The notes below the pieces were generated by a model. The model did not search any database. It saw only the letters and a program-made list of their open reading frames with translations, and was not told the origin of the DNA. Below are positions 46,726-64,000 of a DNA stretch of 64,000 bases, one piece after another. This DNA is from Desulfurococcaceae archaeon (GTDB lineage Archaea > Thermoproteota > Thermoprotei_A > Sulfolobales > Desulfurococcaceae). Each line of letters opens with the position of its first letter. Position 1 is the stretch's first letter. Location: positions 2,005 through 66,004 of the forward strand of contig JAJHQS010000003.1 of the NCBI GenBank assembly GCA_020833225.1, written 5' to 3'. Position numbers and translations under genes: made by a program.

Positions 46726-46805
46726 CTTAATAGTGCTACATTGTCTTAATTTATATTAAAAAATTCTTATTATAGTGTTTAAGAATACTCAAGTAGGGTT
46801 TAAGT

Positions 46806-48549: not shown

Positions 48550-48629
48550 ACTTTTTAAAACTATATATCATAGCTCTTAATTTAAAATAGCGGCTGCCAA
48601 ACTATCTCAAAGATCAGGGGAGAACGTCT

Positions 48630-49361
48630 TCACGACTCAATGGTTTTAAAAGCAGCGATGATCGTTCTCTTTAATTCTCTTACAAGTTCTTCTGAGACTA
48701 TACCTTCTCTGCCACCAGTACACACGGCTCCTCTAAATCCAATTATGTCAAATTCTAATTTAACAGCGTCAAAAACATGGTGTTTTCTTAAACTACCAGC
48801 TATAGCTGCCATTAAGCCGTTTTCATGGGTTTCTTTAACAAATTTCTCTAAGTAACTTCTAGTTAGAAGGTTAAATGTTGTTTTACCATCTTTTACATAT
48901 GTATCGATCATAACAACACTAGCCCCTACACTCTTAGCTATGTCAATTACTTTTAGAGGTTCAAGTGATTCAGCTCGCTCATAATCAGCATATCCTACTA
49001 AGACTAGCTTAGTGTTAAAAGACTTTAAGACATCTGATAGTCTTAATCCTACTATTTTTGCCTCATCTAATGATTTCATTGCAATACCTACTTTAAAGTA
49101 ATTGACACCGAGAGAACCAGCAGTATGAGCTATATATTCTAAATATGGCTCAAATTTCTTAACATCACCACTAGCACAGCTCACTTCTATTTTAAAAGTG
49201 TTAAGCTTCCTGGACCTCTCTATAACCTCTCTTAAAACACTATAATCTGGTAGCCCTAAACTACCCCTAGAAGGTTCTTTCACATCAACTATATCAGCTC
49301 CACCACGCACAGCGCTTTCAAACTCAGAGGGGTGTCTTATTGAAACTAGTAATTTAATCAT
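48630..49361 (-). CDS. mfnB: (5-formylfuran-3-yl)methyl phosphate synthase, MfnB-like (DUF556)
   Basis: MIKLLVSIRHPSEFESAVRGGADIVDVKEPSRGSLG resembles the MfnB N-terminus. 243-aa TIM-barrel size. Confidence 0.65.
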   Translation of the reverse strand: MIKLLVSIRHPSEFESAVRGGADIVDVKEPSRGSLGLPDYSVLREVIERSRKLNTFKIEVSCASGDVKKFEPYLEYIAHTAGSLGVNYFKVGIAMKSLDEAKIVGLRLSDVLKSFNTKLVLVGYADYERAESLEPLKVIDIAKSVGASVVMIDTYVKDGKTTFNLLTRSYLEKFVKETHENGLMAAIAGSLRKHHVFDAVKLEFDIIGFRGAVCTGGREGIVSEELVRELKRTIIAAFKTIES

Positions 49362-49440: not shown

Positions 49441-50073
49441 ATGATAGATGTTTGTTTAGCAATATTAGCAGGTGGTAGTGGAGAGAGATTTAGACATTAT
49501 AAACCACTAATACAGTTGGGTAGTAAGAAGTTAATAGAGTATATTTTAGAGAATTTAGCTCCATATTTTAATAGAACTCTACTAGTAGTTAAAAACGATC
49601 TCCAGAGAGAACTCTTAATTAATAATATTAGTAAAGCTATTAGTAAATATGATGTTGAAATAGTATTAGATAAAATAGATCTTGAGGGACCAATTGCCGG
49701 CATTATTACTGCTACTGAGTACTGTAATGACAAGTTATTAGCACTAGCCCCATCAGATACTCCATTCATAAAATTCAATATTTACGAGAAACTCAGAGAT
49801 TACGTAGTTAAAAGGCATTATGATGCAGCTATACCAATATGGCCTAATAACTACACTGAACCCTTAATCTCGCTTAGTGTTAGAGAGAGGCTTGCACACG
49901 CAGCTCACATGTGTATCTCAGGGAGGTGGAGAGTTCAAGACGTGTATAGTAAACTACATACAGCATATGTCAATATCTACTCTCTTAGTGAAAACCCTGA
50001 AGTAGATTTCCTCAATATAAATAATTATGGGGACTTAGAACTAGCTTTGAAAATTATTAATCAACGTAATTAA
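49441..50073 (+). CDS. mobA: MobA-like molybdenum cofactor guanylyltransferase
   Basis: ILAGGSGERF nucleotide-binding motif. 210 aa. Confidence 0.7.
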   Translation: MIDVCLAILAGGSGERFRHYKPLIQLGSKKLIEYILENLAPYFNRTLLVVKNDLQRELLINNISKAISKYDVEIVLDKIDLEGPIAGIITATEYCNDKLLALAPSDTPFIKFNIYEKLRDYVVKRHYDAAIPIWPNNYTEPLISLSVRERLAHAAHMCISGRWRVQDVYSKLHTAYVNIYSLSENPEVDFLNINNYGDLELALKIINQRN

Positions 50074-51142
50074 GCCACTCTATTGGCTTAATATAGTCTC
50101 TACCAGCAGCCTCAAACGTACCTATTATTATCTGATAATATATTTCACTATTTTTCAAATCTTCTACTTCTTCTAGTTTACCATAAGCCACTACTTCTTC
50201 TCCGGGCTTAGCAAGGTCTATGTAGAGGCCCTCATAACTCACAATCCTTGTTATTTGGCCAGGTGGGGGGATTCCTTCTAATACTCTTACATTGTCAACT
50301 ATGTATACAGCGGGCATGAAAATAGCGTCTCTGTTATCTATGACCCTAGCTTTTACTTTCACTAATCCAAGGGGTTTGTGGATTTTATCTTCCCACTGCT
50401 CATTTACTTCACTCTCTAATTTAACTGGGTGTATAGAAAATTGTCTTCCCTTGTAAATAGCTCTATTCCACTTATATTTACTATAAAGGATCATTGCTTC
50501 TCTTAGACTTAGTGGGTGATGTGATATTACATCTTTACTCCACTCTTCAAGCATTTTACCTCTAGGTAGAGAGAAATGTAATTCTTTTTCACTATGTAAT
50601 AGTTCTCTTAGAGCATCTCTAATAATCCAGCTATTACGTTCACCATAAATTATTACGTCTATATCTGAGTACTGTATATTGTGTATTTTTAAGAGGAGAG
50701 AACCTGTTATTCCGAAATTAACTAGATTTATGTTTGTTATATCAGATAACTCCTCAACTAGATCTATTGCTAGTTTTTCTAGATCATCTCGCTGTGAACT
50801 AAGAATTTCTTGTAATCTCTCTTCTGGTTTAAAATGTGTTTTAATTTTATACTTAGGCACCTCTATTAGTTCAATTGATCTATATTTATCGAAGACTATG
50901 TATTCTGGATAGTGATTTCTCAAATAGTTCATTGTGTCTTTAACTCCCATAGCGCTATAATATGGTAAAATTCTACCATACATAATGCCACTTCTACTCC
51001 ACTTAGTCCTAATACTTGAAGAATAGTGTGGTATATATTTCAAATACGCTATTACTCTATCAGCTGGATGTATATTGCCAATTACACAGAAAATTAAACC
51101 CTCACTAGACTCTAAGAAGTCTCTATCTCTAAACCCCCTCAT
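50057..51142 (-). CDS. Predicted Pol-beta-superfamily nucleotidyltransferase with a C-terminal OB-like domain
   Basis: GITGSLLLKIHNIQYSDIDVIIYG (G[GS]-x-D-x-D motif). The beta-rich C-terminus (VKARVIDNRD...VVAYGKLEEV) looks OB-like. Confidence 0.5.
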   Translation of the reverse strand: MRGFRDRDFLESSEGLIFCVIGNIHPADRVIAYLKYIPHYSSSIRTKWSRSGIMYGRILPYYSAMGVKDTMNYLRNHYPEYIVFDKYRSIELIEVPKYKIKTHFKPEERLQEILSSQRDDLEKLAIDLVEELSDITNINLVNFGITGSLLLKIHNIQYSDIDVIIYGERNSWIIRDALRELLHSEKELHFSLPRGKMLEEWSKDVISHHPLSLREAMILYSKYKWNRAIYKGRQFSIHPVKLESEVNEQWEDKIHKPLGLVKVKARVIDNRDAIFMPAVYIVDNVRVLEGIPPPGQITRIVSYEGLYIDLAKPGEEVVAYGKLEEVEDLKNSEIYYQIIIGTFEAAGRDYIKPIEWLNYVD

Positions 51143-51231: not shown

Positions 51232-52134
51232 ATGGCACATATAGTCATATCTGTAAATGTGATGTTAATGATTGAGGGATATTTAGTTAAATACAAGAAT
51301 TACTTCTGGGTTGTTAAAGGCTGTGAACACTTCGACGACTACATAATTGCCTATCCTCGCTATGATATTATTAATCAAGTTAAAATTAAAAGTACTAGTA
51401 GAGCATTAGATATAGCGAGGAAACTTGGAGTTTTAAGATATAATGAGTGTTTAAAACTAGAAGTCCCGTTACTAAGGAGAGATGAAATTGAAGATGTACT
51501 TAACCCCTTTAATAGAGATCTCTGGCCTGAATTACCGCGAGAAGTAGACCTGATTCTCGGAGATCTTGACTCAAACGAGTTAAGAGATATAGGATTAACT
51601 GGGAGTTACTTAGTGTCAACAATATTAGAGAATATTAAGCCAAGAGACGTGGACTTAATTATTAGAGATGTGAATGTGGGCTTTAAAGTCTATAAAAAAC
51701 TCAGAGAACTAAGAGAGAGGGGGAGTAGTAAGCCTTTAGAAGAACCAGAAGAATTTGAAGGATGTGATCCAGAGACCAGAACTATGTTGTTAAAGAGTAG
51801 AGTACTAGAGGGAGTCATAGGCGACATAATTTATAGTATACGAATATTATCATGTAGAGAGAGTTTTAAACCTACCTGTGTAGAGAGCTATGGGTTTTAT
51901 AGTGGAGAACTCATCATCGTGAAAGATATATCTCCAATAACCATGCCCTACACATACATCGCAGAAAGTAAGCTAGGTAAAATTCTGGTGAAGAGTTTAC
52001 GAATGAGATATAGTGAAATACCCGTGGGAACAAGGCTAATAGTATTAAACTGTAGAATAGAAAAATGCTCTGAGGATCTCACTCATATTAGCTTAGATGA
52101 ATGCACAGTTAAACTACTTTCATTAGTTATATGA
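51232..52134 (+). CDS. Predicted Pol-beta-superfamily nucleotidyltransferase, divergent paralogue of 50057..51142
   Basis: GLTGSYLVSTILENIKPRDVDLIIRD motif. Same three-part layout as its neighbour. An ATG near 51262 is a possible start. Confidence 0.45.
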   Translation: MAHIVISVNVMLMIEGYLVKYKNYFWVVKGCEHFDDYIIAYPRYDIINQVKIKSTSRALDIARKLGVLRYNECLKLEVPLLRRDEIEDVLNPFNRDLWPELPREVDLILGDLDSNELRDIGLTGSYLVSTILENIKPRDVDLIIRDVNVGFKVYKKLRELRERGSSKPLEEPEEFEGCDPETRTMLLKSRVLEGVIGDIIYSIRILSCRESFKPTCVESYGFYSGELIIVKDISPITMPYTYIAESKLGKILVKSLRMRYSEIPVGTRLIVLNCRIEKCSEDLTHISLDECTVKLLSLVI

Positions 52135-53336
52135 TGAACTCTTTTTGTAATGACATTTAAACCCCCTAAGCTCTTGTAGTGTCTAACTATCTATAATACA
52201 ATTATTGTCCATAAAAGATAACGAAAAGGAATAAACCACGTGTTAAACTTGAAAGGGCATTAGCGAAATCTACTAAGTCGATAGAATTTAAATCTATTTA
52301 CGGCACTTTGAGCTAAGTTAGATTATGTAATGTTCTACTAAATTACTCTATTATGAGAGAGGAGTCAAGGAACTTAGATCTATATGAGCTAAATTCGGCT
52401 TTCACTTTCTTTAACCAATATGTTTTCTCTGAGCAGTTCGATATTTTCAGGGATTCCATTGACTTTCTTACACCTTTCTGTGGAAGATTTTTAAAAGGTG
52501 CTTACTAATACTACTTCAGGGCCTCCGATAAATGATAATGTCTTGTAGTAATATCTTGATCTCTTGGAGTAAAAATACCTTGGATATTTTAAATACGTTT
52601 TCTGAAATCTATGACTCTAATTCATTATCTATAGGTGATAACGCATCAATACTTGAAAGCGACACCTCAGGCTGTGGGTACTCAACTAAGCTCTTGATCT
52701 CCTCATATTTCTATACTTCCCAGAAACCTCAAATACTTTAGTTAACAACTTGTTTCGTAATACCTATTTAAGAGAACCTACATCTACGATTATATGTACT
52801 ATTGTCGAATATATGTTCGTAGGTAATGGTGCGAAGTGTACACTAAATTCTTTATTTCCACAACATTAACAGTTCCTTGTGAACCTTGACTGATGGAACA
52901 CGATGTCAGACTTTATCCTCTCAAGTTTACAAAAGTATCGTATCGTTAAGTAAATTTCCATGCTTCTTTACTCACAAACACTTAAATACGTTTAAGGAAT
53001 TACACTCATGGCCTCGCCTTCTAAGCTGGGCGGAACAAGAACATCGGTAACAGCTAGAGGTGAGCTAACAGTTCTCGTGATGTTTGCCCCAGTAGTAATT
53101 CGACTATACGAGGAGTAATTAAAAACATCAAGGTAGTGGTGAATGAGAATGGATATAAGTTTGAGAATAGCTACTTACCCTTCTATCTGTCTTAATGTAA
53201 AAATCGTAAATAGACGTATATGGAAAGTTGCCTTAAGTGCAAAAGACTATAAGTAAATATTTATAACTCTAACGCGAGTTAAGTAATAATAATGTTTATG
53301 GCTATTATCAAGAGGATTTAAAATGAGGTCTGTGTT

Positions 53337-54434
53337 ATGGTGGAGAAGAGTGATAAGATAATTTTCGTTCAAGGAGAATTTAGAGAAGAGCTTCTAAATG
53401 GAAAAGCCCTCTGCATTTATGTTATAGCTTCAACAAAGACCTCCACGATCCCTGGGATATCGCTAGCTGGTCAAGCACCTCTACTCACGCTATTCACGCC
53501 AGCTTTAGATGTTGAATATCTTTACAACGGTATTCCGATCTCTTTCCCCATAATACCAACAACCCCTGAGGGAATACCAACTCCCGCTATTATAACGCGC
53601 TCCGCTATTAAACTCTCTCAATTACCCTACATAATTGTTGATGCTGGCTCCTTCATAGAACCAAGAGTTTCCTTATTAAAATTAGCCTGGAGAACTATAG
53701 GTGGTAGAATAGATATTGAAAATGCTTTACCTTTGGGAACTTCAAGAAAGCTTTTTGAAGAATCAAAGGAAGTAGGCAAAACTTATGGGTCTATAGCTAA
53801 CGTGATCGTTATTGGTGAAAGTATGCCTGGAGGAACTACAACCGCTATGGCTATACTTAGAGCTCTCAATTACGGAGAACCTGATGTTGTTAGTAGCTCT
53901 TCGAGAGATAACCCACTAGAACTCAAGAGAGCCATTACAGATAAGGCCCTTCAAAGATTAAAAAATAACGAAGATATCTTTAAAATAAATGATATCGTAG
54001 GAGATCCTCTACACATATCAATAGCCGGCATAGCTCTAGGTGCTCTTGAGAAAAAATCTCTCGTTGTTTTAGCTGGTGGTACACAGATGCTTGCAGTATT
54101 ATCATTAATGAAGGAGATCGAGCCTCAATTTGATCAGAGGAAAGTTGTTCTAGCTACGACTAGATGGATATATCTAGATAAAGGTGTAAAAATATTAAAT
54201 GTTCTTAGAAAATACTTCCCAGAGATAACTTTTACATATGTAGATATTAATTTTGAAGATGCCCCCTTTAAAGGACTTAGAGCATATGAAGAGGGATTCG
54301 TTAAAGAGGGTGTCGGTGCGGGAGGAACAGCTTTTCTAGCGATGATCAGGGGAGTTAAGGTGAGTGAACTAAAAAGTCGTGTATATGAGGAATATAGCAA
54401 CATCATTAGCCATGGTGTAATACCCTATGGTTAA
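53337..54434 (+). CDS. cobT: Archaeal-type nicotinate-nucleotide:dimethylbenzimidazole phosphoribosyltransferase (CobT, UPF0284 family)
   Basis: TKTSTIPGISLAG and IGESMPGGTTTAMAIL motifs. GAGGT lies 8 nt before the ATG. Confidence 0.75.
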   Translation: MVEKSDKIIFVQGEFREELLNGKALCIYVIASTKTSTIPGISLAGQAPLLTLFTPALDVEYLYNGIPISFPIIPTTPEGIPTPAIITRSAIKLSQLPYIIVDAGSFIEPRVSLLKLAWRTIGGRIDIENALPLGTSRKLFEESKEVGKTYGSIANVIVIGESMPGGTTTAMAILRALNYGEPDVVSSSSRDNPLELKRAITDKALQRLKNNEDIFKINDIVGDPLHISIAGIALGALEKKSLVVLAGGTQMLAVLSLMKEIEPQFDQRKVVLATTRWIYLDKGVKILNVLRKYFPEITFTYVDINFEDAPFKGLRAYEEGFVKEGVGAGGTAFLAMIRGVKVSELKSRVYEEYSNIISHGVIPYG

Positions 54435-55530
54435 AATTATTAGAAGTGATAGTGAAGCGCTCATAATTGATCTTGAGCGAGACATGGTACCTCTTTCGAC
54501 AGCCGGATGTCCCAAAGTGTTTACTACAGTAAGATATATTGTATTTAAACGTGTTCCAAAAGACTTCAGTCACGTTGACCTCGACGCATTCTGCTCAGAT
54601 CTCTCTAATTCTCTAGGTCTTGATGGAGCAAAAACCATAATTTTCTTAACAGCAGTTGATGTATCAACTTATAGTTATGCTCAAGCTGTTTTCAGAGATG
54701 TAAAAGTCGAAGTCTTTATAACTTTTGGTATTAATATGCCTTACTGCGTAAACATAGATATAGATGTTCATAATCAACTAAACACTATAAATATAGCTGT
54801 TATTGTAAATAAACCACTTAGCCGCCTAGCTCTCCTAGATCTTTTTAGAACAGTGTCTGAAATTAAGGGATCTATACTATCACTTGGAGGCCCTCAATGT
54901 ATTAGTGGTATTTCTTTAGGCACAGCATCTGACGCTACGACTGTTGTAGCTCCTGAGGACTCTAATAGATTTGCAGGCATCGCTACAGATATTGGAATAG
55001 CTACTGCACAAGCACTCATAAAAGCCTTAACTAAGTCATTAATAAACATTAATTATGAGGATTATATAGCAAAGACTTTGGGGTTAAATAACTTTGAATA
55101 CATTATAGAGTTAAGTAGAAGAGTCTATAACTTCGCACCTATACCTAGTGTTAACGAGGAAGAATTCCTCGAAGAGTTAAAAAAGGAATTTAGTTATGCG
55201 TTAACAGATCCAAATATTCAAATACTAATTAGAGGCGCGAAACTAGTTGAGATCTCTGCTCAACTTGGCTTAATACCCTCTATAACGTCTAGTGAATTTT
55301 TAGCTGACACTCCTAGAATCATAGTTGATGAGTTAATAGGTAAAGCTCTCTCAGAGTATATAAATGGTTTCAGGGGACTATTAGCTTATTACTGGGTAGA
55401 GAGGTTAAAAGAACGTGGAGACCTCTCTGAAATTAAGGAGCTTCCTCCGATCTCTGACGACATTATTACAGCGTTAATTGGAAGTATTCTCAGTAAGATC
55501 TACGATAAATATGTCCAATTGAAGAGGTAA
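54427..55530 (+). CDS. cbiZ: Adenosylcobinamide amidohydrolase CbiZ with a C-terminal extra domain of about 150 aa (possibly CobZ/PgpA-like, i.e. a CbiS-type fusion)
   Basis: The N-terminal 210 aa or so are CbiZ-like (TINIAVIVNKPLS, GTASDATTVV). The extension ends in ISDDIITALIGSILSKIY, reminiscent of the PgpA/CobZ C-terminal motif. Confidence 0.6.
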   Translation: MVKIIRSDSEALIIDLERDMVPLSTAGCPKVFTTVRYIVFKRVPKDFSHVDLDAFCSDLSNSLGLDGAKTIIFLTAVDVSTYSYAQAVFRDVKVEVFITFGINMPYCVNIDIDVHNQLNTINIAVIVNKPLSRLALLDLFRTVSEIKGSILSLGGPQCISGISLGTASDATTVVAPEDSNRFAGIATDIGIATAQALIKALTKSLININYEDYIAKTLGLNNFEYIIELSRRVYNFAPIPSVNEEEFLEELKKEFSYALTDPNIQILIRGAKLVEISAQLGLIPSITSSEFLADTPRIIVDELIGKALSEYINGFRGLLAYYWVERLKERGDLSEIKELPPISDDIITALIGSILSKIYDKYVQLKR

Positions 55531-55534
55531 AAGC

Positions 55535-56080
55535 ATGAACATATTAATTATGGCTGGAGGCAGAGGATCACGATTAGGAGGATTAAAGAAACCATTTTTA
55601 AGCCTATGTCGTAGGAGATTAATTGACGTGGTCATTGATGTGGCGAAGAGTCTTGTTAAGAATAATGAAATTTATCTTTGCATATGTAAAGACGATGTTA
55701 ACATGCTAAACAACGCTATAAATATAAATGTCATTTTGTGTCCTGGACAAGGTTATGTAGAAGACTTGATTTATGCTTTTCAAATAACTGGTTTTCCCAC
55801 ATTAGTGCTTCCAGCCGATATGCCTTTTCTTACTAGAGAAGTTGTTGAGAGGTTTTTGAGTGAAGCTTTACGTTTAGAGAGTGACGTTGTAACCTTAATG
55901 GTTTGTAACAAGAATGAATGTAAGGAGTCAGGTATATCGCTTTTTAGAAAAACTGGTGGTTCCTGGAGTAATGTATACTTTGAGGAGGATATTCGATTAA
56001 GAGATATTGATACATATGAAGACCTTGTGTGGGCTGAAAAACTTTGCGAATCCATGGAGGGGATAGAAGAGCGAGATTAG
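55535..56080 (+). CDS. cobY: Adenosylcobinamide-phosphate guanylyltransferase (archaeal CobY)
   Basis: ILIMAGGRGSRLGG nucleotidyltransferase motif. 181 aa. In the cob operon. Confidence 0.75.
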   Translation: MNILIMAGGRGSRLGGLKKPFLSLCRRRLIDVVIDVAKSLVKNNEIYLCICKDDVNMLNNAININVILCPGQGYVEDLIYAFQITGFPTLVLPADMPFLTREVVERFLSEALRLESDVVTLMVCNKNECKESGISLFRKTGGSWSNVYFEEDIRLRDIDTYEDLVWAEKLCESMEGIEERD

Positions 56081-57102
56081 ATTTTAGTTCAAATATAAAT
56101 CCTTTAGCACCTCCTAAATATGTCTATAATATTATCTCAGAGTGTATAGATAAGAGAGTTCTTGAAAAATATCCTGACTACAATTATGAGGAACTCCGTA
56201 GTGCTATATCAAAGTTCTATGAGTGTGATTCGGAAAATATTATTCCGACGGCAGGGGCTCATGAAGCGATAAACTTAACAATTCTTGCTTTAAAGCCTAA
56301 GAAAATAATCGTCCTTGAACCCTCTTACGGCGAATATGAGGATCTTTCAGGTGTTTTAAACATAGATTATATTCCACTATATTATAAACGCCTAGAAGAA
56401 GGCTTTTATCTAGATGTTACACAACTTAACGCGTTCTGCCAGGATAGAGAAGCCCTTATCGTAATTACAAATCCTAATAATCCCACAGGTTCATATATAG
56501 ATAGATCACAACTACTAGATTCATTATCTCAATGTAAGGCAAAGATACTTGTAGATGAGGCTTATATGGAGCTATGTACTCACTGTCCTATAACAGTCAA
56601 AAATGTCACATCTGAGAACTTTATTATAGTGAGGTCTCTGACCAAATGGCTTGGATTACCAGGCATGAGATTAGGATTTCTTTATGTAACCTCTCGTAGC
56701 GTTATCGACAAAATTAATATTCTTAGACAACCTTGGAATATTAATAGCTTGACTGAATGTCTTGTCACTGAACTTTTTAATAAGTTTTCAAATGAATTAT
56801 ACAGCTTTATAAGAGCTTCAAAAGAGTTTATTTACAGAGAAAGAGAACGTGTATCTATCGCGCTTAAGGAAATGGGGATCAAAGTTTATGAAAGCGTTAC
56901 AAATTTCCTATTAATTGAAGTGAGAGAGGGGTTAAAATTAGTAAGTGTATTAAAAGAGAATGGTATTGCTGTTAGAAGCTGTCTTAGCTTTAAAGGACTG
57001 GGACCTAATTTTATAAGAATAGCCATTAGAAAAACAGAAGAAAATGATGAGCTTTTAAAGGTGTTAAAAGAGGTAATAGGGTGTGAGCAAGGTCATAGAT
57101 GA
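56044..57102 (+). CDS. cobD: L-threonine-O-3-phosphate decarboxylase (CobD, class I/II aminotransferase fold)
   Basis: IHGGD...LDFSSNINPLAPP N-terminus and the PLP lysine region RSLTKWLGLPGMRLG. Confidence 0.8.
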   Translation: MRIHGGDRRARLDFSSNINPLAPPKYVYNIISECIDKRVLEKYPDYNYEELRSAISKFYECDSENIIPTAGAHEAINLTILALKPKKIIVLEPSYGEYEDLSGVLNIDYIPLYYKRLEEGFYLDVTQLNAFCQDREALIVITNPNNPTGSYIDRSQLLDSLSQCKAKILVDEAYMELCTHCPITVKNVTSENFIIVRSLTKWLGLPGMRLGFLYVTSRSVIDKINILRQPWNINSLTECLVTELFNKFSNELYSFIRASKEFIYRERERVSIALKEMGIKVYESVTNFLLIEVREGLKLVSVLKENGIAVRSCLSFKGLGPNFIRIAIRKTEENDELLKVLKEVIGCEQGHR

Positions 57103-57862
57103 CTTCTTTTCACTTTTATGTTTCTTCACATCAATACCTATACCTAAACACCTTTGTAAGTCTAGTGAGTTTAGTTCTTTATACCTAATTCCTTTAATAG
57201 GCTTCATTAAGGGTGTCGTTATAGCTTTACCCATCGCTATACTCAGAATTTTAAACTTCGACATCTTTATTACGACATCGATAGTTTTAATTTTACACTT
57301 CACTGTTCAAGGGTTTTTACATGCAGATGGATTTATAGATTTCTCAGAGGCATTATTGGCGCATAGACTTGGCATAGATCCCTATATGGTTATTAAAGAT
57401 AAATATAAAGGCTCTTACGCTATAGCTGTTTTCGTGACCTTCGTACTCTTCCTTTATACATCGCTTTATGGTCTTTTAAATAAACTCACTCCGTTAAATT
57501 CATTCATTTATATAGTACTAAGTGAGACTTGGAGTCTAACATCAGTCCTAATATTGTCTTATTTTAGTTCAACTTCTCTTAAGGGTTTAGGCAGAGAATT
57601 TAAGGAGGGGATTGATTTCCACGACGTCATAATAGGGCTTGTAATAATATTTACCATTAATGTTACTACAATAATTCCTATTAAAGGTCTAATTGGTGGC
57701 ATCTATAGTTTCATTTCTTCTTTGATACCAATAGTGTTTTCAGTGATGTTTTCACATACTTTAAGTGTTAAAACTCTAGGTTTTATAACTGGTGATGTTC
57801 TTGGATTTACTGTCGAGTTAACATACGCGCTCGTAGTAATTACATATTTCATCTTGGTGTAA
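57083..57862 (+). CDS. cobS: Adenosylcobinamide-GDP ribazoletransferase (cobalamin synthase CobS)
   Basis: Polytopic, 259 aa, with the HADGFIDFSEAL motif. Confidence 0.8.
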   Translation: MSKVIDDFFSLLCFFTSIPIPKHLCKSSEFSSLYLIPLIGFIKGVVIALPIAILRILNFDIFITTSIVLILHFTVQGFLHADGFIDFSEALLAHRLGIDPYMVIKDKYKGSYAIAVFVTFVLFLYTSLYGLLNKLTPLNSFIYIVLSETWSLTSVLILSYFSSTSLKGLGREFKEGIDFHDVIIGLVIIFTINVTTIIPIKGLIGGIYSFISSLIPIVFSVMFSHTLSVKTLGFITGDVLGFTVELTYALVVITYFILV

Positions 57863-57864
57863 GC

Positions 57865-58833
57865 TTGGATTTAACATATATTTACCCTAAAAATCTCGCT
57901 GAATTTTTATGTATACTGATCTTGGCTATAATATTTGACTTTGTTTACCCCTACCATAGAGGCCTCTTATATCTTATACATCCAACACACACAGCTTACA
58001 CGTTAGCTTTTATTCTTTATAAAATATTTCCGAAGACAAAGGCTTCGGGGCTAATCATATGGCTCATAGTAGTCCTTTCTCATATTTCCATTTATGGGGT
58101 TATTTTATATTTAACATGCAAAATTCATAAAATTTTATGGCTAATAGCATCAATCTACATAGTCAAGGTCTCTATATCCCTCAAGCTCTTAATAAACTAC
58201 GTAAACAGCGTCAAACTCTGCCTACAAAGAGGGGAAATAACATGTGCTAGAGAGGCTGTATCACATATTGTTAGGAGAGATGTAAGTAAACTCGATGAGG
58301 GGTATGTGGCGTCAGCTGCCTTAGAATCTCTTTTTGAAAGCCTAGTTGACGGATTTACATCCCCTCTTTTACTCTACTTACTACTCGGACCACTTGGAGC
58401 CCTCCTTCAAAGAGTGACAAATACGCTTGATTCAGCTCTCGGTTATAAAGAACCTAATTTTAAAGATGTGGGGTGGTTCTCGGCTAAAGCTGATACTTAT
58501 ATAAACTTCATACCAGCGAGGTTTACAGCTTTTTTAATAATTTTACTTTGTCCCACGATCAAGGGCTCTATGGATAGATCTTGGAAGATCTATTTAAGAG
58601 ATAAAAATGCTACTCAGAGCAAAAATGCAGGACACCCCATGGCTTCTGCTTCTGGCTGTTTATCCGTTAGACTTGAAAAAATCTGCTCATATGTCTTAGG
58701 CTCGGAATATCCCTTACCAACATATAGAGATATACACAAAGGTTTAAAGCTCGCAATTCATGTAGCTCTAACCTTCTTAATCTTAGTTATCTCTATATAC
58801 TATTTCGTTTCTGACATCATTCTGATCAATTAA
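57865..58833 (+). CDS. cbiB: Adenosylcobinamide-phosphate synthase (CbiB)
   Basis: 322-aa membrane protein. GYVASAALESLFESLVDGFTSPL and SKNAGHPMASASG motifs. Confidence 0.8.
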   Translation: MDLTYIYPKNLAEFLCILILAIIFDFVYPYHRGLLYLIHPTHTAYTLAFILYKIFPKTKASGLIIWLIVVLSHISIYGVILYLTCKIHKILWLIASIYIVKVSISLKLLINYVNSVKLCLQRGEITCAREAVSHIVRRDVSKLDEGYVASAALESLFESLVDGFTSPLLLYLLLGPLGALLQRVTNTLDSALGYKEPNFKDVGWFSAKADTYINFIPARFTAFLIILLCPTIKGSMDRSWKIYLRDKNATQSKNAGHPMASASGCLSVRLEKICSYVLGSEYPLPTYRDIHKGLKLAIHVALTFLILVISIYYFVSDIILIN

Positions 58834-58982
58834 TGAGTCTTTAACGTGAAAGCTTCCTTCTATATGTGGATAAAGTGATATAGTAAGTTAAGAGTTTAAT
58901 GAGATCAATTTTAGATTAAGGACTTATTCGCAAATGTGAGAGTTCTTAAGATCCTAATGGTGCTGTATGAAGAAATAAATAA

Positions 58983-59543
58983 TTATTTTGATGCTTCTAA
59001 GAGTAGTGCTTGATACTGTATGGTAAAAATTAGATCTGATAGTCTATTGAGAAGAACACCTATATTTTTACATCCTAAACTGGTATCATGAAAACATTGC
59101 CAAAACCATCTTTCAGCTCTTCTAATAACTGTTCTAGTTATTGCTGTTAATGCTACGCCACCTCGTCTTGGATTTTTAACGTAATTAGTAATGATTTTAT
59201 TTGGTTTTACTTTATTATTAATTCTTCTCTCAATATCAAGAATTAAGTCTTCGCTAGGACACCAATTGCTTTTTAGAGATGATGCTATTTTTAATAGTAA
59301 TTCATATACATATTCAAGATCTCTTACAATCAGATCTACGCTACTATTTTCTATAGCGAGACCTATGAAAGCTAATGCCTCATCTATAGAGCCTATAAAA
59401 TGCACACAGGGATGGTATTTTGGGAGTTTAATACTGCCTATAGAGGTACTTCCATTATCACCACTCCTAGTATATACGGTTGTTATACGTGGTGAGTTTA
59501 CACTCTCTGAGTTTAAGTCACACATATATAAAACTCCTCCCAT
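58983..59543 (-). CDS. pduO: PduO-type ATP:cob(I)alamin adenosyltransferase
   Basis: YTRSGDNGSTSIGS...IGSIDEA N-terminal motif. About 180 aa, helical. Confidence 0.8.
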   Translation of the reverse strand: MGGVLYMCDLNSESVNSPRITTVYTRSGDNGSTSIGSIKLPKYHPCVHFIGSIDEALAFIGLAIENSSVDLIVRDLEYVYELLLKIASSLKSNWCPSEDLILDIERRINNKVKPNKIITNYVKNPRRGGVALTAITRTVIRRAERWFWQCFHDTSLGCKNIGVLLNRLSDLIFTIQYQALLLEASK

Positions 59544-60313
59544 TAGTCGTCGAGGATAGACTTACATATATCTTTAGTTCCAGCACCCCCCTCAGCTGGT
59601 ATTTTCATTCTATCGGCAATTGTGTGTAAACCGTACATTGAGAGAATGTATCTTAAGATTTCTTTTCCCCTCATAAGCTGAGACCTTAAGCAATCTATAG
59701 GTATATTTTCAACGATATCTATGATTCTAGGATCACTTAGAGGAGTACAGATTTTTATGTTAACACAATTTGCTATTAATACTTCTGAAAATATACCTTT
59801 AGAAAGCTTTTTAATAGCTTCTATAAGCTCGTTTTCAGTTAGATTTAACATGAAGCTATAGCCAGCAAAAACTTCATCACCCCCTGTTCCTGTGAAGATG
59901 CATTTACATCCATCATCTTTAGCCTGTTTAAGTACTGTGTAGAAGACAATATCATTTCTAATTTCAACACATCCACCATCTCTGTGTGTATCTAAATTCT
60001 CTTCACCAATACATTTAGTAACGTTAATAACGAGATCTTTAATATTACTCAGATCTATGATTAAGTATTTTATATCGATGTTAAATAGTTTAGATAATTG
60101 ATTAACGTAATACAGATCCTTTGGTAAACCATGTTTATAAAACACAACATAACCCCTAGGCTTTAATCCAGCTAATACTGCGGCTAATAGGATAGTTGTT
60201 GTGTCTATCCCGCCGCTAAGAGCTATGCAATCACAACTACATTCATCTACAGTTTTTATAAGTGTTTCGAGAAGATTTCTCGCTAAAATATCACATGGCA
60301 TACGTAGACTCAT
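59543..60313 (-). CDS. Asparagine-synthase-like PP-loop adenylating enzyme (synthetase domain only, no glutaminase domain)
   Basis: ALSGGIDTTTILLAA PP-loop and TGTGGDEVFAGYSF, the AsnB C-domain signature. 256 aa. Confidence 0.65.
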   Translation of the reverse strand: MSLRMPCDILARNLLETLIKTVDECSCDCIALSGGIDTTTILLAAVLAGLKPRGYVVFYKHGLPKDLYYVNQLSKLFNIDIKYLIIDLSNIKDLVINVTKCIGEENLDTHRDGGCVEIRNDIVFYTVLKQAKDDGCKCIFTGTGGDEVFAGYSFMLNLTENELIEAIKKLSKGIFSEVLIANCVNIKICTPLSDPRIIDIVENIPIDCLRSQLMRGKEILRYILSMYGLHTIADRMKIPAEGGAGTKDICKSILDD

Positions 60314-60936
60314 TATATCAGCCTCAAGATCCTATATTCATCACAATCTTCTACACTTAAAGGTTTAAACTCTAATGGTTTTATGTGAAGAGGGCCATTA
60401 ATGACTATAGTATGATATTCGCCATGCTCACCTAAGGGATCTGCATTTATCCTACATAATTTCTCGATGAAATCTTCAATATTATCCTGATCTATTTGCT
60501 GACCAAGCCACTCACTAATATCCTTTCTGCATCCGATAATTAATGGCTTAATACCTTTTTCTATTTCCTCATAGAGTAAGTTGACGGGATCATAGCCCCA
60601 TAATGGCTCTATAAGTTTAGCTCCAACCTCTGTAGATAATTTCTCCATGTATTTAAGATGTTCTTCTATGTATACGTCTCCAGCAATAATGACGCTAGGA
60701 TTAAGTTTTCTCAAAATGTTTAATGTTTCAGCGAATTCTTTGCCTTTACTGAGTTTAACCACGATTATAGGTATTTTTGCTAAGAGTAAAGTCTCAATTG
60801 TCTTGCCTAGATTTAAAGTATGTGGATTAGGTCTAGGAAATTCATATACAAATACGAGCCCTAAGTCGATCGTGAGACCTGACTTATAGACGGCGTAATA
60901 GGAGTCTTTACCACCAGATAAAAAGGCTATATACAC
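60313..60936 (-). CDS. MJ0570/Dph6-family PP-loop ATP pyrophosphatase (diphthine-ammonia-ligase-like)
   Basis: AFLSGGKDSYYA PP-loop, PLWGYD, and GEHGEYHTIVINGP. Confidence 0.7.
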   Translation of the reverse strand: MYIAFLSGGKDSYYAVYKSGLTIDLGLVFVYEFPRPNPHTLNLGKTIETLLLAKIPIIVVKLSKGKEFAETLNILRKLNPSVIIAGDVYIEEHLKYMEKLSTEVGAKLIEPLWGYDPVNLLYEEIEKGIKPLIIGCRKDISEWLGQQIDQDNIEDFIEKLCRINADPLGEHGEYHTIVINGPLHIKPLEFKPLSVEDCDEYRILRLI

Positions 60937-61658
60937 TCATAGGCACCTCTTATAGTTTTAAGGACATTTATAGGAATAAGTATTTTTGTATTCTTGAGAT
61001 CTGTTATATGGTAAGTGGTTCTCGGTGGTAATGTAAGTCCTTTAGCCGCTACCTTGTATATTTCACTTACTGAGAGCTCAGGAAGAATTATGCATATATC
61101 GTGTGAGGAGCATAATTTAGAATTATATGGTGTCTTTTTAAACACTCTGATAAAGTCATTGAACATGCTATCTTTTCTTAACTCATTTAAAGTTACATAT
61201 AGATCTAATGCATCAACATAGATGTGCTGAAATATTTCACCAACCTTTACATATAGACTACTAGACCCTCTTTTAACGTTAGACTCTAATATATTGATTA
61301 AAACTGAACTCGTTTTCAATGTTGCCTGGTTTAAGTCTGCAATATACATCCAAGAGCCGATTCTGTCAATGTGTTTATCATAAGAGGCAATAAATGCGGG
61401 TATGAAATAAACTCCTAGAGTTTTTAAAGCTTTAACTCTATGATGACCATCAATAATTATACTTCTCTTCTCGTCAATGATAATTGGTTTAACGACCTTA
61501 TTTAAATATAGGTCCTTAAGAACTTGTCTAAAATGAACTAAATCTATGTCTTCATGTGGAGTCAGATCATTAATATTAATAATAGCTAGCTCAACATCTT
61601 TAATACTCCTCGCAGTGCTCGTTTTCCCAGCCACATTATAAGCCTTATCTTTAAACAT
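60927..61658 (-). CDS. ParB/sulfiredoxin-fold protein, SerK-like (candidate small-molecule kinase)
   Basis: LTPHEDIDL...PIIIDEKRSIIIDGHHRVKALKTLG, the ParB/Srx DGHHR core. The 243-aa size is like that of archaeal ParB-fold serine kinases. Confidence 0.5.
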   Translation of the reverse strand: MFKDKAYNVAGKTSTARSIKDVELAIININDLTPHEDIDLVHFRQVLKDLYLNKVVKPIIIDEKRSIIIDGHHRVKALKTLGVYFIPAFIASYDKHIDRIGSWMYIADLNQATLKTSSVLINILESNVKRGSSSLYVKVGEIFQHIYVDALDLYVTLNELRKDSMFNDFIRVFKKTPYNSKLCSSHDICIILPELSVSEIYKVAAKGLTLPPRTTYHITDLKNTKILIPINVLKTIRGAYECI

Positions 61659-62469
61659 AAGGATCGCTCGTTATTTCATGTTTTCCGGAGTTAATGAGTT
61701 TTGGATACAATAAGTGAATTTCACCTAGATATCTTCTCGTATATGAACTCCTGATCACAACTTTCTTTAAATGTTTCTCAGCCCTCTTCTTAGCATCTAT
61801 GAGCTCATTTAATAAAGGTCTTCTATAAGGTGCTGAAGGTATAGGCACATACTCATCTATAATTAAAGGTACATCTCTGCTTAGGTTGTGTGCTACGTAT
61901 TCTGCTAGTAGTTCTATATCTTCTGCTTCATTAAATCCGGGTATAAATATTGTCTCGATAATTAGTTCTAACCCGCTTTGAAATGCCGAATCCATGTTCT
62001 CAAGTATTATATTTAAATCTCTCTTATTTCTTCCAGTATATGCTGAGAATTTCTCGGGATGTATGCTCTTAACACTTAATTCTACTATGGAGCTTTTCGG
62101 TATGCAGTTAAGTACCTTATTAAGAAGATATCCATTAGTTAGAATAACTAATTTAAGATCTAAAAGGTTTAAGGCCTTTATAATATCACAAAACATTGGA
62201 TCGAACGTTGGCTCACCACCCCCTAATATAGCTTTTCTTAGATCTAACTCTCTTTTAGCATATTTCACTATTTCTATAAACTCCTCTGAATCAAGCGTCT
62301 CTAACCTTAATTTTTCTAACTCTTCTACACAATTCTCTCTGTAAAGATGATGATCGCGGAGAAATCTCTTTCTTATACAGCCAACACACTTAAAGTTGCA
62401 ATCGGCAAACATTATGTAAATGGATTTATTATGGCTATAGTAAGTTATATTGTAGATTAATGTCCTCAT
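61651..62469 (-). CDS. Radical SAM enzyme (activase-like small core)
   Basis: CNFKCVGC (Cx3Cx2C) and the GGGEPT SAM motif. 272 aa. Confidence 0.8.
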   Translation of the reverse strand: MRTLIYNITYYSHNKSIYIMFADCNFKCVGCIRKRFLRDHHLYRENCVEELEKLRLETLDSEEFIEIVKYAKRELDLRKAILGGGEPTFDPMFCDIIKALNLLDLKLVILTNGYLLNKVLNCIPKSSIVELSVKSIHPEKFSAYTGRNKRDLNIILENMDSAFQSGLELIIETIFIPGFNEAEDIELLAEYVAHNLSRDVPLIIDEYVPIPSAPYRRPLLNELIDAKKRAEKHLKKVVIRSSYTRRYLGEIHLLYPKLINSGKHEITSDPYV

Positions 62470-62477
62470 AAAGGCAC

Positions 62478-63269
62478 CTATAATTCCATCTTATTGAGGG
62501 GCTCTAGCGGGATCACGGCTATTCTCCCGTTTATATCTAGGATATGTGTTTTAACACCATATACTTTCTCGAGTAGATCTTCTCTAAATATCTCTCTCGG
62601 TCTCCCTACTGCTACTATTTCCCCATTACTCATTATCACAACTTTATCGGCATATAAAGAGGCTAAGTAGAGGTCGTGTATAGCTATAATGCATATAGAT
62701 CTATTTATCTTTGTAAATTTTTTAACGAGATCTAATATTTCTAGCTTATACTTAAGGTCTAGGAACGCGGAAGGCTCATCAAGCAATAATACTTTAGATC
62801 CTTGTATAAAGGCTCTTGCTATGAGGACTCTTTGTAATTCACCACTACTAAGCTGATCTAGTTTTCTATCTAGTAGATGACTAATGTTCAGCTGTTTAGA
62901 GATCTTATCTACGATTTCTAAGTCTTCTTGTGACATAGAAAACGTTAACATATTCTGATGGGGATATCTAGCTGTGAGTAAGAATTCAAACACTGTTGAT
63001 GGTAGAGATTTAGATATTTGATAATCTACATATGCGAGTATTTTGCTAAGCTCTTTTAGCGAAAATTTTGAGAGAGCTTTACCATCTATATATATGACGC
63101 CAACTTTCGGTTTTATAATAAGCGCTATTGTTTTTAAGAGTGTAGATTTACCAGCACCATTGGGCCCGATAATGAACGTTAGCTCACCCTCATTGATCTC
63201 GAGAGACGCATCTCTTAGAGCTTGTATTGAGTCATACCAGACTTCTAATCCTTTGATAACTATCTTCAC
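62478..63269 (-). CDS. ABC transporter ATPase of the iron-chelate/cobalamin type (BtuD/FepC-like)
   Basis: GPNGAGKST, LSSGELQRV, LLLDEPSAFLD. GTG start overlaps the permease stop (GTGA). Confidence 0.85.
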   Translation of the reverse strand: MKIVIKGLEVWYDSIQALRDASLEINEGELTFIIGPNGAGKSTLLKTIALIIKPKVGVIYIDGKALSKFSLKELSKILAYVDYQISKSLPSTVFEFLLTARYPHQNMLTFSMSQEDLEIVDKISKQLNISHLLDRKLDQLSSGELQRVLIARAFIQGSKVLLLDEPSAFLDLKYKLEILDLVKKFTKINRSICIIAIHDLYLASLYADKVVIMSNGEIVAVGRPREIFREDLLEKVYGVKTHILDINGRIAVIPLEPLNKMEL

Positions 63270-64000
63270 CTTCTCATCCTCTTAATAACAAGATATGATA
63301 AAAATGGCGCTCCAATAACAGCTGTTACTACACCTAATGGAAGCTCGCCTAAACCTCCTATGAATATACTTATAGCTTTCACAATAATGTCGGCAATTAG
63401 TGTAAGTAGTGCTCCTATAAAAATAGTTGTTGGTATGGAGAACTTGTGATCTATCCCCACGAAGAACCTTGCTATATGTGGTGCAACAAGCCCTATAAAT
63501 CCCACAACACCGATGAACGCTATTGTAGTCGCAGTTAGGAAAGCTGATATAGAGGCTGTAAAAATTCTTATTGATGCAGGATTAAAACCTAATTGTTTAG
63601 CAAATTCATCTCCATAGAGATAAGCATTGAGAGGTTTAAAGAGAGCTAAACTTAGCGTGATGGGAACTATTATAAGGGGGATTAGAAGCTGCACATCTCC
63701 CCATAAAGTAGTGCTAACAGTGCCCATTAACAAATACATGTATGGAACTTTAGTCATACTTTGCACTATGTATAATAGAATATGTGAAACTCCACCAAAG
63801 AGGGATGCAACAGCTATGCCAGCTAAGACCATCGCGATATCGCTTCCTCCGCCTAATTTTGAAAGTAGAAGCGTTAACGTAAAACCTATCATTGCACCTA
63901 TAAATGAAATTGTCACTACATAAACTCTTTGAATCATAAGGTCTGGTGCGAGAATAATCCCTAATGCGAGAGCTGTTAGCGCTGTTGAAGACAGCCCAAA
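63266..64000 (-). CDS. FecCD/BtuC-type ABC permease; N-terminus lies beyond the window end
   Basis: Polytopic. The reading frame stays open upstream of Met 63937 to position 64000 (FGLSSTALTALALGIILAPDL). The C-terminal GAPFLSYLVIKR is typical of FecCD. Confidence 0.8.
   Translation of the reverse strand, partial: FGLSSTALTALALGIILAPDLMIQRVYVVTISFIGAMIGFTLTLLLSKLGGGSDIAMVLAGIAVASLFGGVSHILLYIVQSMTKVPYMYLLMGTVSTTLWGDVQLLIPLIIVPITLSLALFKPLNAYLYGDEFAKQLGFNPASIRIFTASISAFLTATTIAFIGVVGFIGLVAPHIARFFVGIDHKFSIPTTIFIGALLTLIADIIVKAISIFIGGLGELPLGVVTAVIGAPFLSYLVIKRMRR

Follow-up and report, generated by a model that had tools for sequence, protein, structure and literature searches.

A Conserved Variant of Archaeal Cobamide Salvage in a Desulfurococcaceae Archaeon with a ParB-Fold Candidate for the L-Threonine Kinase

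Introduction

Most of the microorganisms that require cobamides must salvage them, and we know of no L-threonine kinase for most archaea. The present analysis deals with a stretch of 64,000 nucleotides (nt) from a Desulfurococcaceae archaeon (GenBank assembly GCA_020833225.1, contig JAJHQS010000003.1, positions 2,005 to 66,004), hereafter the window, and particularly with a minus-strand operon that encodes a BtuCD-type importer, a PduO-type adenosyltransferase and, between them, four inner proteins, namely a small radical S-adenosylmethionine (SAM) enzyme, a ParB-fold protein, a DUF71 PP-loop protein and a second PP-loop enzyme related to the asparagine synthetase AsnB. This locus is a real and conserved variant of the known archaeal cobamide salvage pathway, one component of which, DUF71-B12, was predicted earlier, while the new elements are a testable kinase candidate and three further accessory proteins. 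The four inner genes are likely to encode accessory enzymes of cobamide salvage, in which the ParB-fold kinase would supply the precursor of the linker and the two PP-loop enzymes would activate corrinoid carboxylates.

Architecture of the Operon

Between positions 58983 and 64000, seven successive open reading frames (ORFs) are found on the minus strand, with intergenic spacings of −10 to +8 nt across the operon. The btuC and btuD genes overlap by 4 nt (GTGA, 63266–63269) and an 8-nt gap separates btuD from the radical SAM gene, which in turn overlaps the ParB-like gene by 8 nt; the overlap between the ParB-like and DUF71 genes amounts to 10 nt, and the DUF71/AsnB-like and AsnB-like/pduO junctions share one base each, within TAATG. 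The seven products are assigned by Pfam to FecCD, ABC_tran, Radical_SAM, ParB_N (a weak match), Diphthami_syn_2, Asn_synthase and Cob_adeno_trans, and their translations contain the motifs CNFKCVGC, GGGEPT, DGHHR, SGGKDS, GEHGEYHT, SGGIDTT, TGTGGDEVFAGY and YTRSGDNGST. All the coordinates, overlaps and motifs proposed for these genes in a first-pass annotation are therefore reproduced. The extent of seven genes, however, describes the window rather than the operon, since btuC continues beyond the end of the window. Metagenome contigs 99.9% identical to the window (L001 and L002) carry the rest of btuC, which encodes 346 amino acids when complete, and, upstream of it, a gene for a 370-amino-acid Peripla_BP_2 protein with an N-terminal transmembrane anchor. 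Because these near-identical contigs place an anchored btuF before btuC, the operon consists of eight genes in the order btuF-btuC-btuD-radical SAM-kinase candidate-DUF71-AsnB-like-pduO. Such tight packing identifies an operon, yet it is normal for this genome, because the neighbouring cob and cdh operons are, judging from their coordinates, as tightly spaced.

Conservation of the Gene Set in Thermoprotei

Gene neighbourhoods were compared by scanning one genome per GTDB species with an alignment of the DUF71 family, which resulted in 80 loci (loci and contigs are cited by L numbers) that were annotated both by comparison with the proteins of the window and by grouping the neighbouring ORFs through unsupervised clustering. 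The neighbours of the DUF71 gene rank in the order AsnB-like gene, cbiB, cobS, btuD, cobD, cobY, cbiZ and cobT, the other large clusters being antisense shadows or lineage-specific genes. The AsnB-like gene is directly adjacent to the DUF71 gene in 26 of the 55 loci with at least 1 kb on both sides, and the two genes are found in both orders, mostly abutting or overlapping, which means that their adjacency has survived rearrangement. When the flanks reach at least 3 kb on both sides (41 loci), AsnB-like genes are present in 22 loci, loop-assembly genes in 14, btuF/C in 10, ParB-like genes in seven, radical SAM genes in two and PduO in one. Relatives frequently combine these genes in one operon, btuFCD-cobT-cbiZ-cobY-cobD-cobS-cbiB-ParB-like-DUF71-AsnB-like (L009, L017, L088 and L090), with variants that lack the AsnB-like gene (L018) or the DUF71 gene (L089).

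Across Thermoprotei, each of the four inner genes recurs with cobamide salvage genes despite rearranged gene orders, and the nearest relatives of all four proteins belong to Ignisphaera, Desulfurococcaceae, Fervidicoccaceae and Acidilobaceae. The layout of the window is unusual in its order and in the link to pduO, not in its gene set. The co-location of the four inner genes with btu and cob genes in other archaeal genomes, on which the first-pass annotation had made its proposal depend, is thus borne out, and the linkage is conserved in related genomes. By contrast, operonic linkage to PduO is rare, as the single case among the 41 well-flanked loci indicates.

The ParB-Fold Protein as a Candidate L-Threonine Kinase

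The profile of the ParB-like family matches two proteins of the PDB, namely SbnI from S. aureus (5ujd; E 3e-15, profile positions 7–217 of 219, i.e., the full length) and SerK from T. kodakarensis (1e-13, with the C-terminal P-K-T-T-R-H segment included); the entry 5x0b likewise bears the title 'free serine kinase'. The window protein shares with both the two-domain architecture, the DGHHR motif of the ParB-like N-terminal domain, a form of the nucleotide motif DG(H/V)HR of the superfamily, and an N-terminal Glu, and with SerK the C-terminal P-(K/R)-T-T-x-H motif. Residues E36 and D70-G-H-H-R74 and the segment L-P-P-R-x-T-x-H are invariant in the family; the Glu and the DGHHR residues are presumably catalytic, as in SerK and SbnI. 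Nevertheless, identity to these kinases is about 20–25%, and the scores on their NCBIfam models fall far below the cut-offs (SerK, NF053625, 41.4 bits against 380; SbnI, NF033589, 29.5 bits against 350), while the genomic context is that of cbiB and cobD rather than of cysteine or siderophore synthesis, and the predicted substrate is L-threonine. The protein is thus a distant member of the SerK/SbnI superfamily and an orthologue of neither. Pfam and NCBIfam scans match only ParB_N, SerK and SbnI, with no homology to PduX or BluE. PduX (GHMP fold) and BluE carry out the same predicted reaction, the provision of L-threonine-O-3-phosphate for CobD, with an unrelated fold, and the window protein lies outside both families.

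Genomic context points in the same direction. Twelve loci contain a ParB-like gene and, in the 11 with full-length homologues, this gene lies immediately after cbiB (L007–L009, L015, L017, L018 and L031 in genomes, L087–L090 in metagenomes); these comprise seven loci from genomes and four from metagenomes, of which one metagenome locus and one genome locus are the same contig. In the remaining locus, L023, a short divergent copy is found between cbiB and the convergent DUF71 gene. Moreover, the gene cluster encodes no PduX-, BluE- or CobD-fused kinase for the L-threonine kinase step (EC 2.7.1.177), which has been described as an unfilled pathway gap in haloarchaea (PMC8305020). Because of the homology to SerK and SbnI, the adjacency to cbiB and this archaeal gap, the ParB-fold protein is, on balance, favoured as the candidate for the pathway's L-threonine kinase. 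It had previously been listed among genes without a textbook role in cobamide metabolism; membership in a kinase family removes it from the functionally obscure proteins, although the step of linker supply that had been foreseen for the module fits it well. No publication linking ParB-fold proteins or radical SAM enzymes to cobamide salvage was found in the literature searched.

Several points weigh against this assignment. The protein's scores on the kinase models are only those given above, the flanks contain no ParB-like gene in 7 of the 14 loci with loop-assembly genes, SbnI is also annotated by NCBIfam as a transcriptional regulator, and both characterised kinase relatives are serine-specific, SerK being unable to accept threonine (PMC5120207). 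This last point, together with the fact that SerK and SbnI are the sole characterised relatives, feeds an improbable alternative, in which the protein would be an L-serine kinase and the CobD homologue would produce ethanolamine phosphate for norcobamides with an ethanolamine linker. The CobD protein of the window indeed matches PDB 6oux, deposited as threonine phosphate decarboxylase-like, at 5e-24; this entry is presumably SMUL_1544 of Sulfurospirillum, an example of the CobD-family serine-phosphate decarboxylases. However, CobD is closer to the threonine-phosphate decarboxylase of Salmonella (1lc5, 1.6e-36), its best NCBIfam model is TIGR01140, and the kinase candidate is so distant from SerK and SbnI that its specificity may well have changed.

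The annotation of SbnI as a bifunctional regulator/kinase, with regulation of its own operon, raises a further possibility, to which we attach a very low probability, that regulation of the cob and btu genes is the main function of the ParB-fold protein, particularly as proteins with this fold commonly bind DNA or nucleotides (PMC12704722). Nonetheless, all members of the family retain DGHHR, the N-terminal Glu and, as in SerK, the C-terminal P-R-T-T-x-H, no helix-turn-helix domain is detected in the Pfam scan, and a position after cbiB, at the end of a biosynthetic operon, is typical of an enzyme. In addition, an independent pairing with CobD-like decarboxylases elsewhere indicates a metabolic link.

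This pairing is found in polysaccharide gene clusters of low-GC metagenome contigs, in which short SerK-like proteins accompany pyridoxal-phosphate enzymes of the CobD/HisC family. In L126 (1080–4192), L136 (4869–11648), L139 (2549–6913) and L144 (6232–8378), with 26–29% GC, a SerK-like protein of 144–160 amino acids is encoded at most about 550 nt from such an enzyme. In three of the four contigs, no gene intervenes between the two, and three of the four encode a HAD phosphatase nearby; other neighbours include a TupA-type ATP-grasp ligase (L126), an AMP-binding-like protein (L136 and L139), and sugar epimerases or dehydratases (L126 and L136). Polysaccharide decoration in these clusters probably includes a branch in which a phospho-amino acid, made by a kinase not recognised so far, is decarboxylated.

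The Two PP-Loop Enzymes

The DUF71 protein, which had been labelled as an MJ0570/Dph6-type enzyme, belongs to the TTX_0299 family of putative ATP pyrophosphatases, since its score exceeds the cut-off of 250 bits of model NF052347 (Table 1), and the same model is the best match for all 18 aligned homologues. In contrast, it reaches 116 bits on PAB0415_fam and 78.1 bits on the archaeal Dph6 model (TIGR03679), whose cut-off is 197.3 bits. The motif G-E-x-G-E-Y-H-T, invariant across the 18 homologues, aligns with G-E-G-G-E-F-E-T of the solved Dph6 protein PF0828, so that the catalytic Glu188 is replaced by His. This substitution (ENGE[F/Y]H) is the signature of the DUF71-B12 subgroup defined in 2012 by de Crecy-Lagard et al. 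(PMC3541065), in which 75 of 102 members were found beside B12 transporter genes and 18 of 102 beside cbiB, and for which a role in B12 (pseudo-B12) salvage with a function like that of bacterial CbiZ was proposed. In Table S1 of that study, moreover, Ignisphaera, Aeropyrum, Acidilobus, Thermoproteus and several Pyrobaculum species appear with two DUF71 copies each, which argues for a separate Dph6 in such lineages. Altogether, the NCBIfam scores, the change of Glu to His and the two-copy pattern in relatives rule out that the gene is Dph6, an identity that would have undermined the earlier proposal.

The window protein resembles the DUF71-B12 reference in its SGGKDS PP-loop, in the His of G-E-x-G-E-(F/Y)-H-T and in its clustering with btuFCD and/or cbiB, which is found in the window; of the 41 well-flanked loci, 17 contain loop-assembly genes or btuF/C. 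Unlike that reference, it falls in the crenarchaeal TTX_0299 family rather than in PAB0415, co-occurs with CbiZ, and has a conserved AsnB-like partner that the 2012 study did not discuss in a B12 context (PMC3541065). The corrinoid link of the DUF71 gene is consequently not new, and the module cannot be called undescribed, as had been suggested; no biochemical characterisation of DUF71-B12 after 2012 was found in the searchable literature.

The AsnB-like protein, whose gene is the top neighbour of the DUF71 gene in relatives, has 256 amino acids and matches the synthetase half of AsnB alone, with no glutaminase domain; accordingly, its score on the model of glutamine-hydrolysing asparagine synthetase B (TIGR01536) is 44.9 bits against a cut-off of 267. 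The SGGIDT PP-loop is invariant in the family and intact in the window protein, an identical copy of which has been deposited from a metagenome-assembled genome of a 'Desulfurococcaceae archaeon'. An AlphaFold2 (AF2) model (pLDDT 88) finds its best Foldseek match in the C-terminal domain of E. coli AsnB (1ct9; E 2.7e-9, TMq 0.77), followed by beta-lactam synthetase and carbapenam synthetase. In AsnB and these two synthetases, a carboxylate becomes an amide by way of an acyl-adenylate. The family also displays near-invariant cysteines, at residues 27, 29, 136, 138 and 208 of the window protein, which flank the PP-loop strand (C-x-C-I-A-L-S-G-G) and the neighbouring strand (G-C-x-C), while its two most distant homologues lack them and carry instead a C-terminal zinc-ribbon-like CPxC...CxxC tail. 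The cysteines could form disulfides or a metal site; an Fe–S site like that of TtuA at C27, C29, C136 and C138 is disfavoured, as these residues lie on core beta-strands and are missing from distant homologues.

The DUF71-B12 and AsnB-like enzymes probably work as a pair. By analogy, two such PP-loop modules can work together, as shown by a few methanogens (Methanohalophilus and Methanosalsum) in which a glutaminase and an AsnB PP-loop domain are naturally fused to DUF71 (PMC3541065), although the genomes bearing these fusions have a single DUF71 copy and the fusion therefore sits in a Dph6 setting.

It is plausible, if rather tentative, that the pair amidates corrinoid carboxylates with ammonia. 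This reading draws on the chemistry of both families, on a division of labour between two enzymes as in CbiA/CobB and CbiP/CobQ, and on heat-driven amide hydrolysis, to which salvaged corrinoids are likely exposed at high temperature. CbiA and CbiP proceed through phosphorylated intermediates (ATP to ADP) and have a fused glutaminase domain. Their proposed counterparts in the window would reach the same outcome, the conversion of acetate and propionate carboxylates of the corrin into carboxamides, as adenylate-forming PP-loop enzymes (ATP to AMP and PPi) without a glutaminase domain. CbiA and CbiP themselves are absent from the window, as noted before: only two ORFs of about 260 amino acids match the Pfam 'CbiA' nucleotide-binding domain (25500–26276 and 35579–36367) and, given this size and their position flanking a carbon monoxide dehydrogenase/acetyl-CoA synthase (CODH/ACS) cluster, they are read as CooC-type ATPases.

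An alternative that we regard as unlikely, though worth serious attention, would place the pair at the nucleotide-loop arm instead of the side chains, either in an ATP-dependent remodelling of complete cobamides such as pseudo-B12, in line with the role put forward for DUF71-B12 in 2012, or in activating the f-propionate of cobyric acid as an adenylate, to which aminopropanol phosphate could be joined by CbiB or by the adenylating enzyme. Nearly all genomes with CbiB have CbiZ or DUF71-B12, and the two are anti-correlated in bacteria (PMC3541065). Similarly, the DUF71 and AsnB-like genes often lie directly beside cbiB (L027, L032, L035, L039, L062 and L064), and the beta-lactam and carbapenam synthetases, close in fold to the AsnB-like protein, use an amine and not ammonia as nucleophile. 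However, a CbiZ domain and CbiB are both already encoded in the neighbourhood, an ATP pyrophosphatase alone cannot hydrolyse an amide and, in general, de novo producers that contain CbiB manage without DUF71-B12.

The Radical SAM Enzyme and a Short BtuF-Like Protein

The first of the four inner genes encodes a radical SAM protein by all the usual signs, i.e., the CNFKCVGC motif, a PF04055 score well above the cut-off of 29.5 bits (Table 1) and a partial TIM-barrel fold, whose AF2 model (pLDDT 86) best matches pyruvate formate-lyase (PFL)-activating enzyme (TM 0.67/0.74), followed by NifB, MoaA and viperin. Neither the window protein nor any of ten more distant relatives reaches the cut-off of an NCBIfam model (e.g., for the window protein, MoaA 57.9 against 284 bits, PFLE_PFLC 33.3 against 174, and viperin 39.9 against 180). 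A specific subfamily could therefore not be assigned, as NCBIfam, PDB sequence searches and Foldseek yield only generic matches to minimal radical SAM enzymes (PFL-activating enzyme, NifB, MoaA and viperin). The protein resembles PFL activase and other minimal members of the superfamily in its length of about 260 amino acids, CX3CX2C motif and partial TIM barrel, but no glycyl-radical enzyme is encoded nearby, it fails the activase, MoaA, QueE and viperin models, and its context is a corrinoid importer and a BtuF-like protein.

In an exhaustive profile search over 1.84 billion representatives, just 44 clusters reached E≤1e-30. Homologues of the enzyme are encoded immediately downstream of btuD in L023, L069, L166 and L169 and, in L167/168, after a short BtuF-like gene beside a btuFCD-cobT operon; five independent contexts other than the window thus place the gene after btuFCD or a BtuF-like gene. 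These neighbourhoods mark the protein as an enzyme associated with corrinoid import.

The short BtuF-like protein (sBP) has about 263 amino acids and lacks the membrane anchor of BtuF. A hidden Markov model of this family gives intact members more than 400 bits and true BtuF proteins at most 92, and the protein recurs beside the radical SAM, cobT or AsnB-like gene in relatives, in which it is intact and highly conserved. In the window, only a decayed sBP gene is found (Table 1), in a region with no ORF longer than 69 amino acids. The ORF-free stretch of 1.2 kb upstream of cobT (52135–53336) is consequently ruled out as a regulatory or RNA-coding region.

Further contigs show related arrangements. 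In L169 (1366–7427), a hot-spring contig, the salvage locus is decaying, with btuC and btuD fragmented and DUF71 truncated alongside an IS605-type element (Y1 transposase, OrfB and a Cas12f/TnpB-like domain), while the radical SAM and sBP genes are intact. In L166, more radical SAM/SPASM genes (2998–4058 and 8854–9885) surround the btuFCD-radical SAM unit, with a second, fragmented sBP copy at 9965–10529 and a nitroreductase-family gene upstream.

Importer, Adenosyltransferase and Nucleotide-Loop Genes

An FecCD permease, an ABC ATPase and a Peripla_BP_2 binding protein encoded in one operon constitute a BtuFCD-type importer. The top NCBIfam match of btuC is the BtuC model PRK09535, under its cut-off, and homology does not discriminate between corrinoid, heme and siderophore transport. 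Gene context nevertheless supports specificity for corrinoids, because btuFCD is co-operonic with cobT...cbiB in L009, L017, L018 and L088–L090. PduO exceeds the PF01923 cut-off of 24 bits and scores 73.1 bits on TIGR00636, with a cut-off of 108.45, and looks like a divergent member of its family; its start is ambiguous, since gene callers choose M1 or M7.

The operon converges, across a spacer of 149 nt, on plus-strand genes at 53337–58833 (Table 1) which, judged by homology and the CobZ domain included, form the complete archaeal set for nucleotide-loop assembly. The second of these genes had been labelled cbiZ; a CbiZ domain is indeed encoded, but as part of a CbiS-like fusion of CbiZ and CobZ. 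The two operons hence appear to encode all known steps of archaeal cobinamide salvage as outlined by Woodson and Escalante-Semerena (BtuFCD, CbiZ, CbiB, CobY, CobS, CobT and CobZ) and, with BtuFCD and PduO, every textbook step except the kinase that provides L-threonine phosphate for CobD. To this textbook pathway, the window adds four conserved genes and a decayed fifth, none of which has been placed in it.

A scan that was not designed for archaea found no bacterial-type intrinsic terminator in the spacer between pduO and cbiB; a promoter scan with bacterial models, ill-suited to archaea, gave fewer promoter-like sites than in shuffled sequence; and Rfam, at gathering thresholds over the whole window, matched no riboswitch or other known RNA family.

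Table 1. Features of the two convergent operons and their surroundings, with positions in the window.
Feature	Positions	Strand	Basis
btuC-type permease (FecCD), C-terminal 244 amino acids	63266–64000	−	Pfam FecCD 163.6 bits; gene continues beyond window
btuD-type ABC ATPase	62478–63269	−	Pfam ABC_tran 109.5 bits
Small radical SAM enzyme, 272 amino acids	61651–62469	−	PF04055 61.3 bits, CX3CX2C motif
SerK/SbnI-family (ParB-fold) candidate L-threonine kinase	60927–61658	−	Family profile against PDB SbnI, SerK
DUF71-B12-type PP-loop ATP pyrophosphatase (TTX_0299 family)	60313–60936	−	NF052347 256.5 bits
AsnB synthetase-domain-only PP-loop enzyme	59543–60313	−	PF00733 53.8 bits over residues 30–162
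PduO-type corrinoid adenosyltransferase	58983–59543	−	PF01923 88.8 bits
Convergent spacer pduO/cbiB, 149 nt	58834–58982		Coordinates
cbiB	57865–58833	+	TIGR00380 181.9 bits, cut-off 165.9
cobS	57083–57862	+	PF02654 99.3 bits
cobD, L-threonine-phosphate decarboxylase family	56044–57102	+	TIGR01140 245 bits, cut-off 290
cobY (NTP_transf_3)	55535–56080	+	Weak CobY and TIGR00454 matches, conserved operon position
CbiS-like fusion, CbiZ amidohydrolase and CobZ alpha-ribazole phosphatase	54427–55530	+	PF01955 residues 16–200; NF038002 201.9 bits (cut-off 250); CobZ domain residues 223–360
Archaeal-type cobT	53337–54434	+	TIGR00303 297.6 bits, cut-off 240
Decayed sBP pseudogene, divergent from cobT	52445–53078	−	tblastn with intact sBPs E 6e-17, 31–38% identity, two or three frame-shifted pieces

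Proposed Pathway

The operon can be viewed as the uptake-and-processing half of cobamide salvage, which converges on cobT-cbiS(cbiZ+cobZ)-cobY-cobD-cobS-cbiB. According to the proposed scheme, corrinoids would be imported by BtuFCD and adenosylated by PduO, and the CbiZ domain would remove the aminopropanol/nucleotide arm to give adenosylcobyric acid. The ParB-fold kinase would then convert free L-threonine into L-threonine-O-3-phosphate, from which CobD would produce the aminopropanol phosphate attached by CbiB, while CobY, CobT, CobS and the CobZ domain would complete the nucleotide loop. The PP-loop enzymes, acting as a pair, would adenylate corrinoid carboxylates and amidate them with ammonia, thereby re-amidating incompletely amidated or heat-deamidated corrinoids that would otherwise be unusable to a salvager. 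Finally, the imported corrinoid would be the substrate of the small radical SAM enzyme, to which the leaderless BtuF-like protein might present it.

As an extension of this scheme, which we advance as a speculation of rather low probability, the PP-loop pair, the radical SAM enzyme and the leaderless BtuF-like carrier would constitute a corrinoid 'conditioning and repair' system in hyperthermophilic salvagers, alongside the ParB-fold kinase as a new, non-orthologous archaeal L-threonine kinase. The cytoplasmic carrier would hold the corrinoid while its side-chain amides are restored and a radical step removes or alters a group that blocks its reuse.

Other observations count against the scheme as a whole. 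Functional steps past family assignment rest on gene context, the radical SAM family offers no hint of its chemistry, two of its homologues have no corrinoid genes nearby (both at contig ends), and its sBP partner is a pseudogene in the window while the radical SAM gene is intact. Furthermore, the authors of the 2012 study gave DUF71-B12 another role, like that of bacterial CbiZ in pseudo-B12 salvage (PMC3541065), and CbiZ is present here too. Many genes of the TTX_0299 family, e.g., in Acidilobus and Caldisphaera, stand apart from cob and btu genes, and the association of DUF71 with corrinoid genes is therefore strong, not universal.

These isolated TTX_0299 genes could also be taken to mean that the four inner genes are housekeeping genes (Dph6, a QueC/AsnB-like enzyme, a MoaA-like radical SAM enzyme and ParB) inserted by chance among corrinoid genes, in agreement with the automatic annotations of identical or near-identical proteins as 7-cyano-7-deazaguanine synthase, MoaA, PFL activase and diphthine-ammonia ligase. 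Such an explanation is hardly credible, as the respective equivalog models are not reached (Dph6 and MoaA, see above; QueC, 19 bits against 150), His takes the place of the Dph6 catalytic Glu, relatives carry two DUF71 copies, and the association with cob and btu genes persists over many rearrangements in families from Ignisphaera to Pyrodictiaceae. A function of the four inner proteins in cobamide salvage is, in consequence, preferred.

Genomic Surroundings and Cobamide Demand

The window also contains an archaeal CODH/ACS cluster (25500–36367), with a CooC-type ATPase, cdhA (Prismane and 4Fe–4S domains), cdhC, cdhD, a cdhE-like gene (CdhD and FeS domains), RACo and a second CooC-type ATPase, in which a small ORF at 28753–29277 is considered to be cdhB by position only. 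The cluster, read as complete, represents a corrinoid consumer of the Wood-Ljungdahl type in a Desulfurococcaceae-like genome. A second RACo gene is located at 42899–44758. The corrinoid iron–sulfur protein of CODH/ACS and the two RACo activators, 15–30 kb away from the salvage operons, explain the demand for cobamides.

Methanopterin/methanofuran-type genes are found at 41948–49361 (Mpt_N dehydrogenase, ATP-grasp_3, His_biosynth-like, Hydantoinase_A, AA_kinase and the 4-HFC-P synthase MfnB) and, beyond the end of the window, DHNA/MptD, DUF447 and DUF1464 genes lie on the far side of btuF (L001, 1–4306). The salvage operons are thus situated in an island of C1-cofactor genes. Two divergent ORFs at 50057–51142 (−) and 51232–52134 (+), with no Pfam, NCBIfam or PDB match, share a nucleotidyltransferase-like motif, G-(I/L)-T-G-S...D-(I/V)-D-(V/L)-I-I (pairwise E 1e-4). 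The regions 8113–25099 and 37150–40327 encode subunits of an A-type ATP synthase, a QueT transporter, a beta-oxidation/electron transfer flavoprotein/thiolase cluster and adenylate kinase, as well as an ADP-forming acetyl-CoA synthetase beside a DRTGG/AAA_26 protein.

Significance for Cobamide Salvage

DUF71-B12 proteins are encoded beside B12 transporters in many bacteria and archaea, as was already flagged in 2012, and the conversion of carboxylates into amides that is expected of the PP-loop pair addresses the sole kind of corrinoid damage or incompleteness that textbook salvage cannot fix. Were the amidation reading true, it would reveal cofactor repair at high temperature and would also explain the DUF71-B12 proteins of gut Bacteroidetes, Dehalococcoides and Thermotogae. 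If the kinase assignment is true, a pathway gap would be closed and predictions of B12 auxotrophy for archaeal genomes would improve. The ParB-fold kinase, once confirmed, would represent another non-orthologous solution to the L-threonine kinase step.

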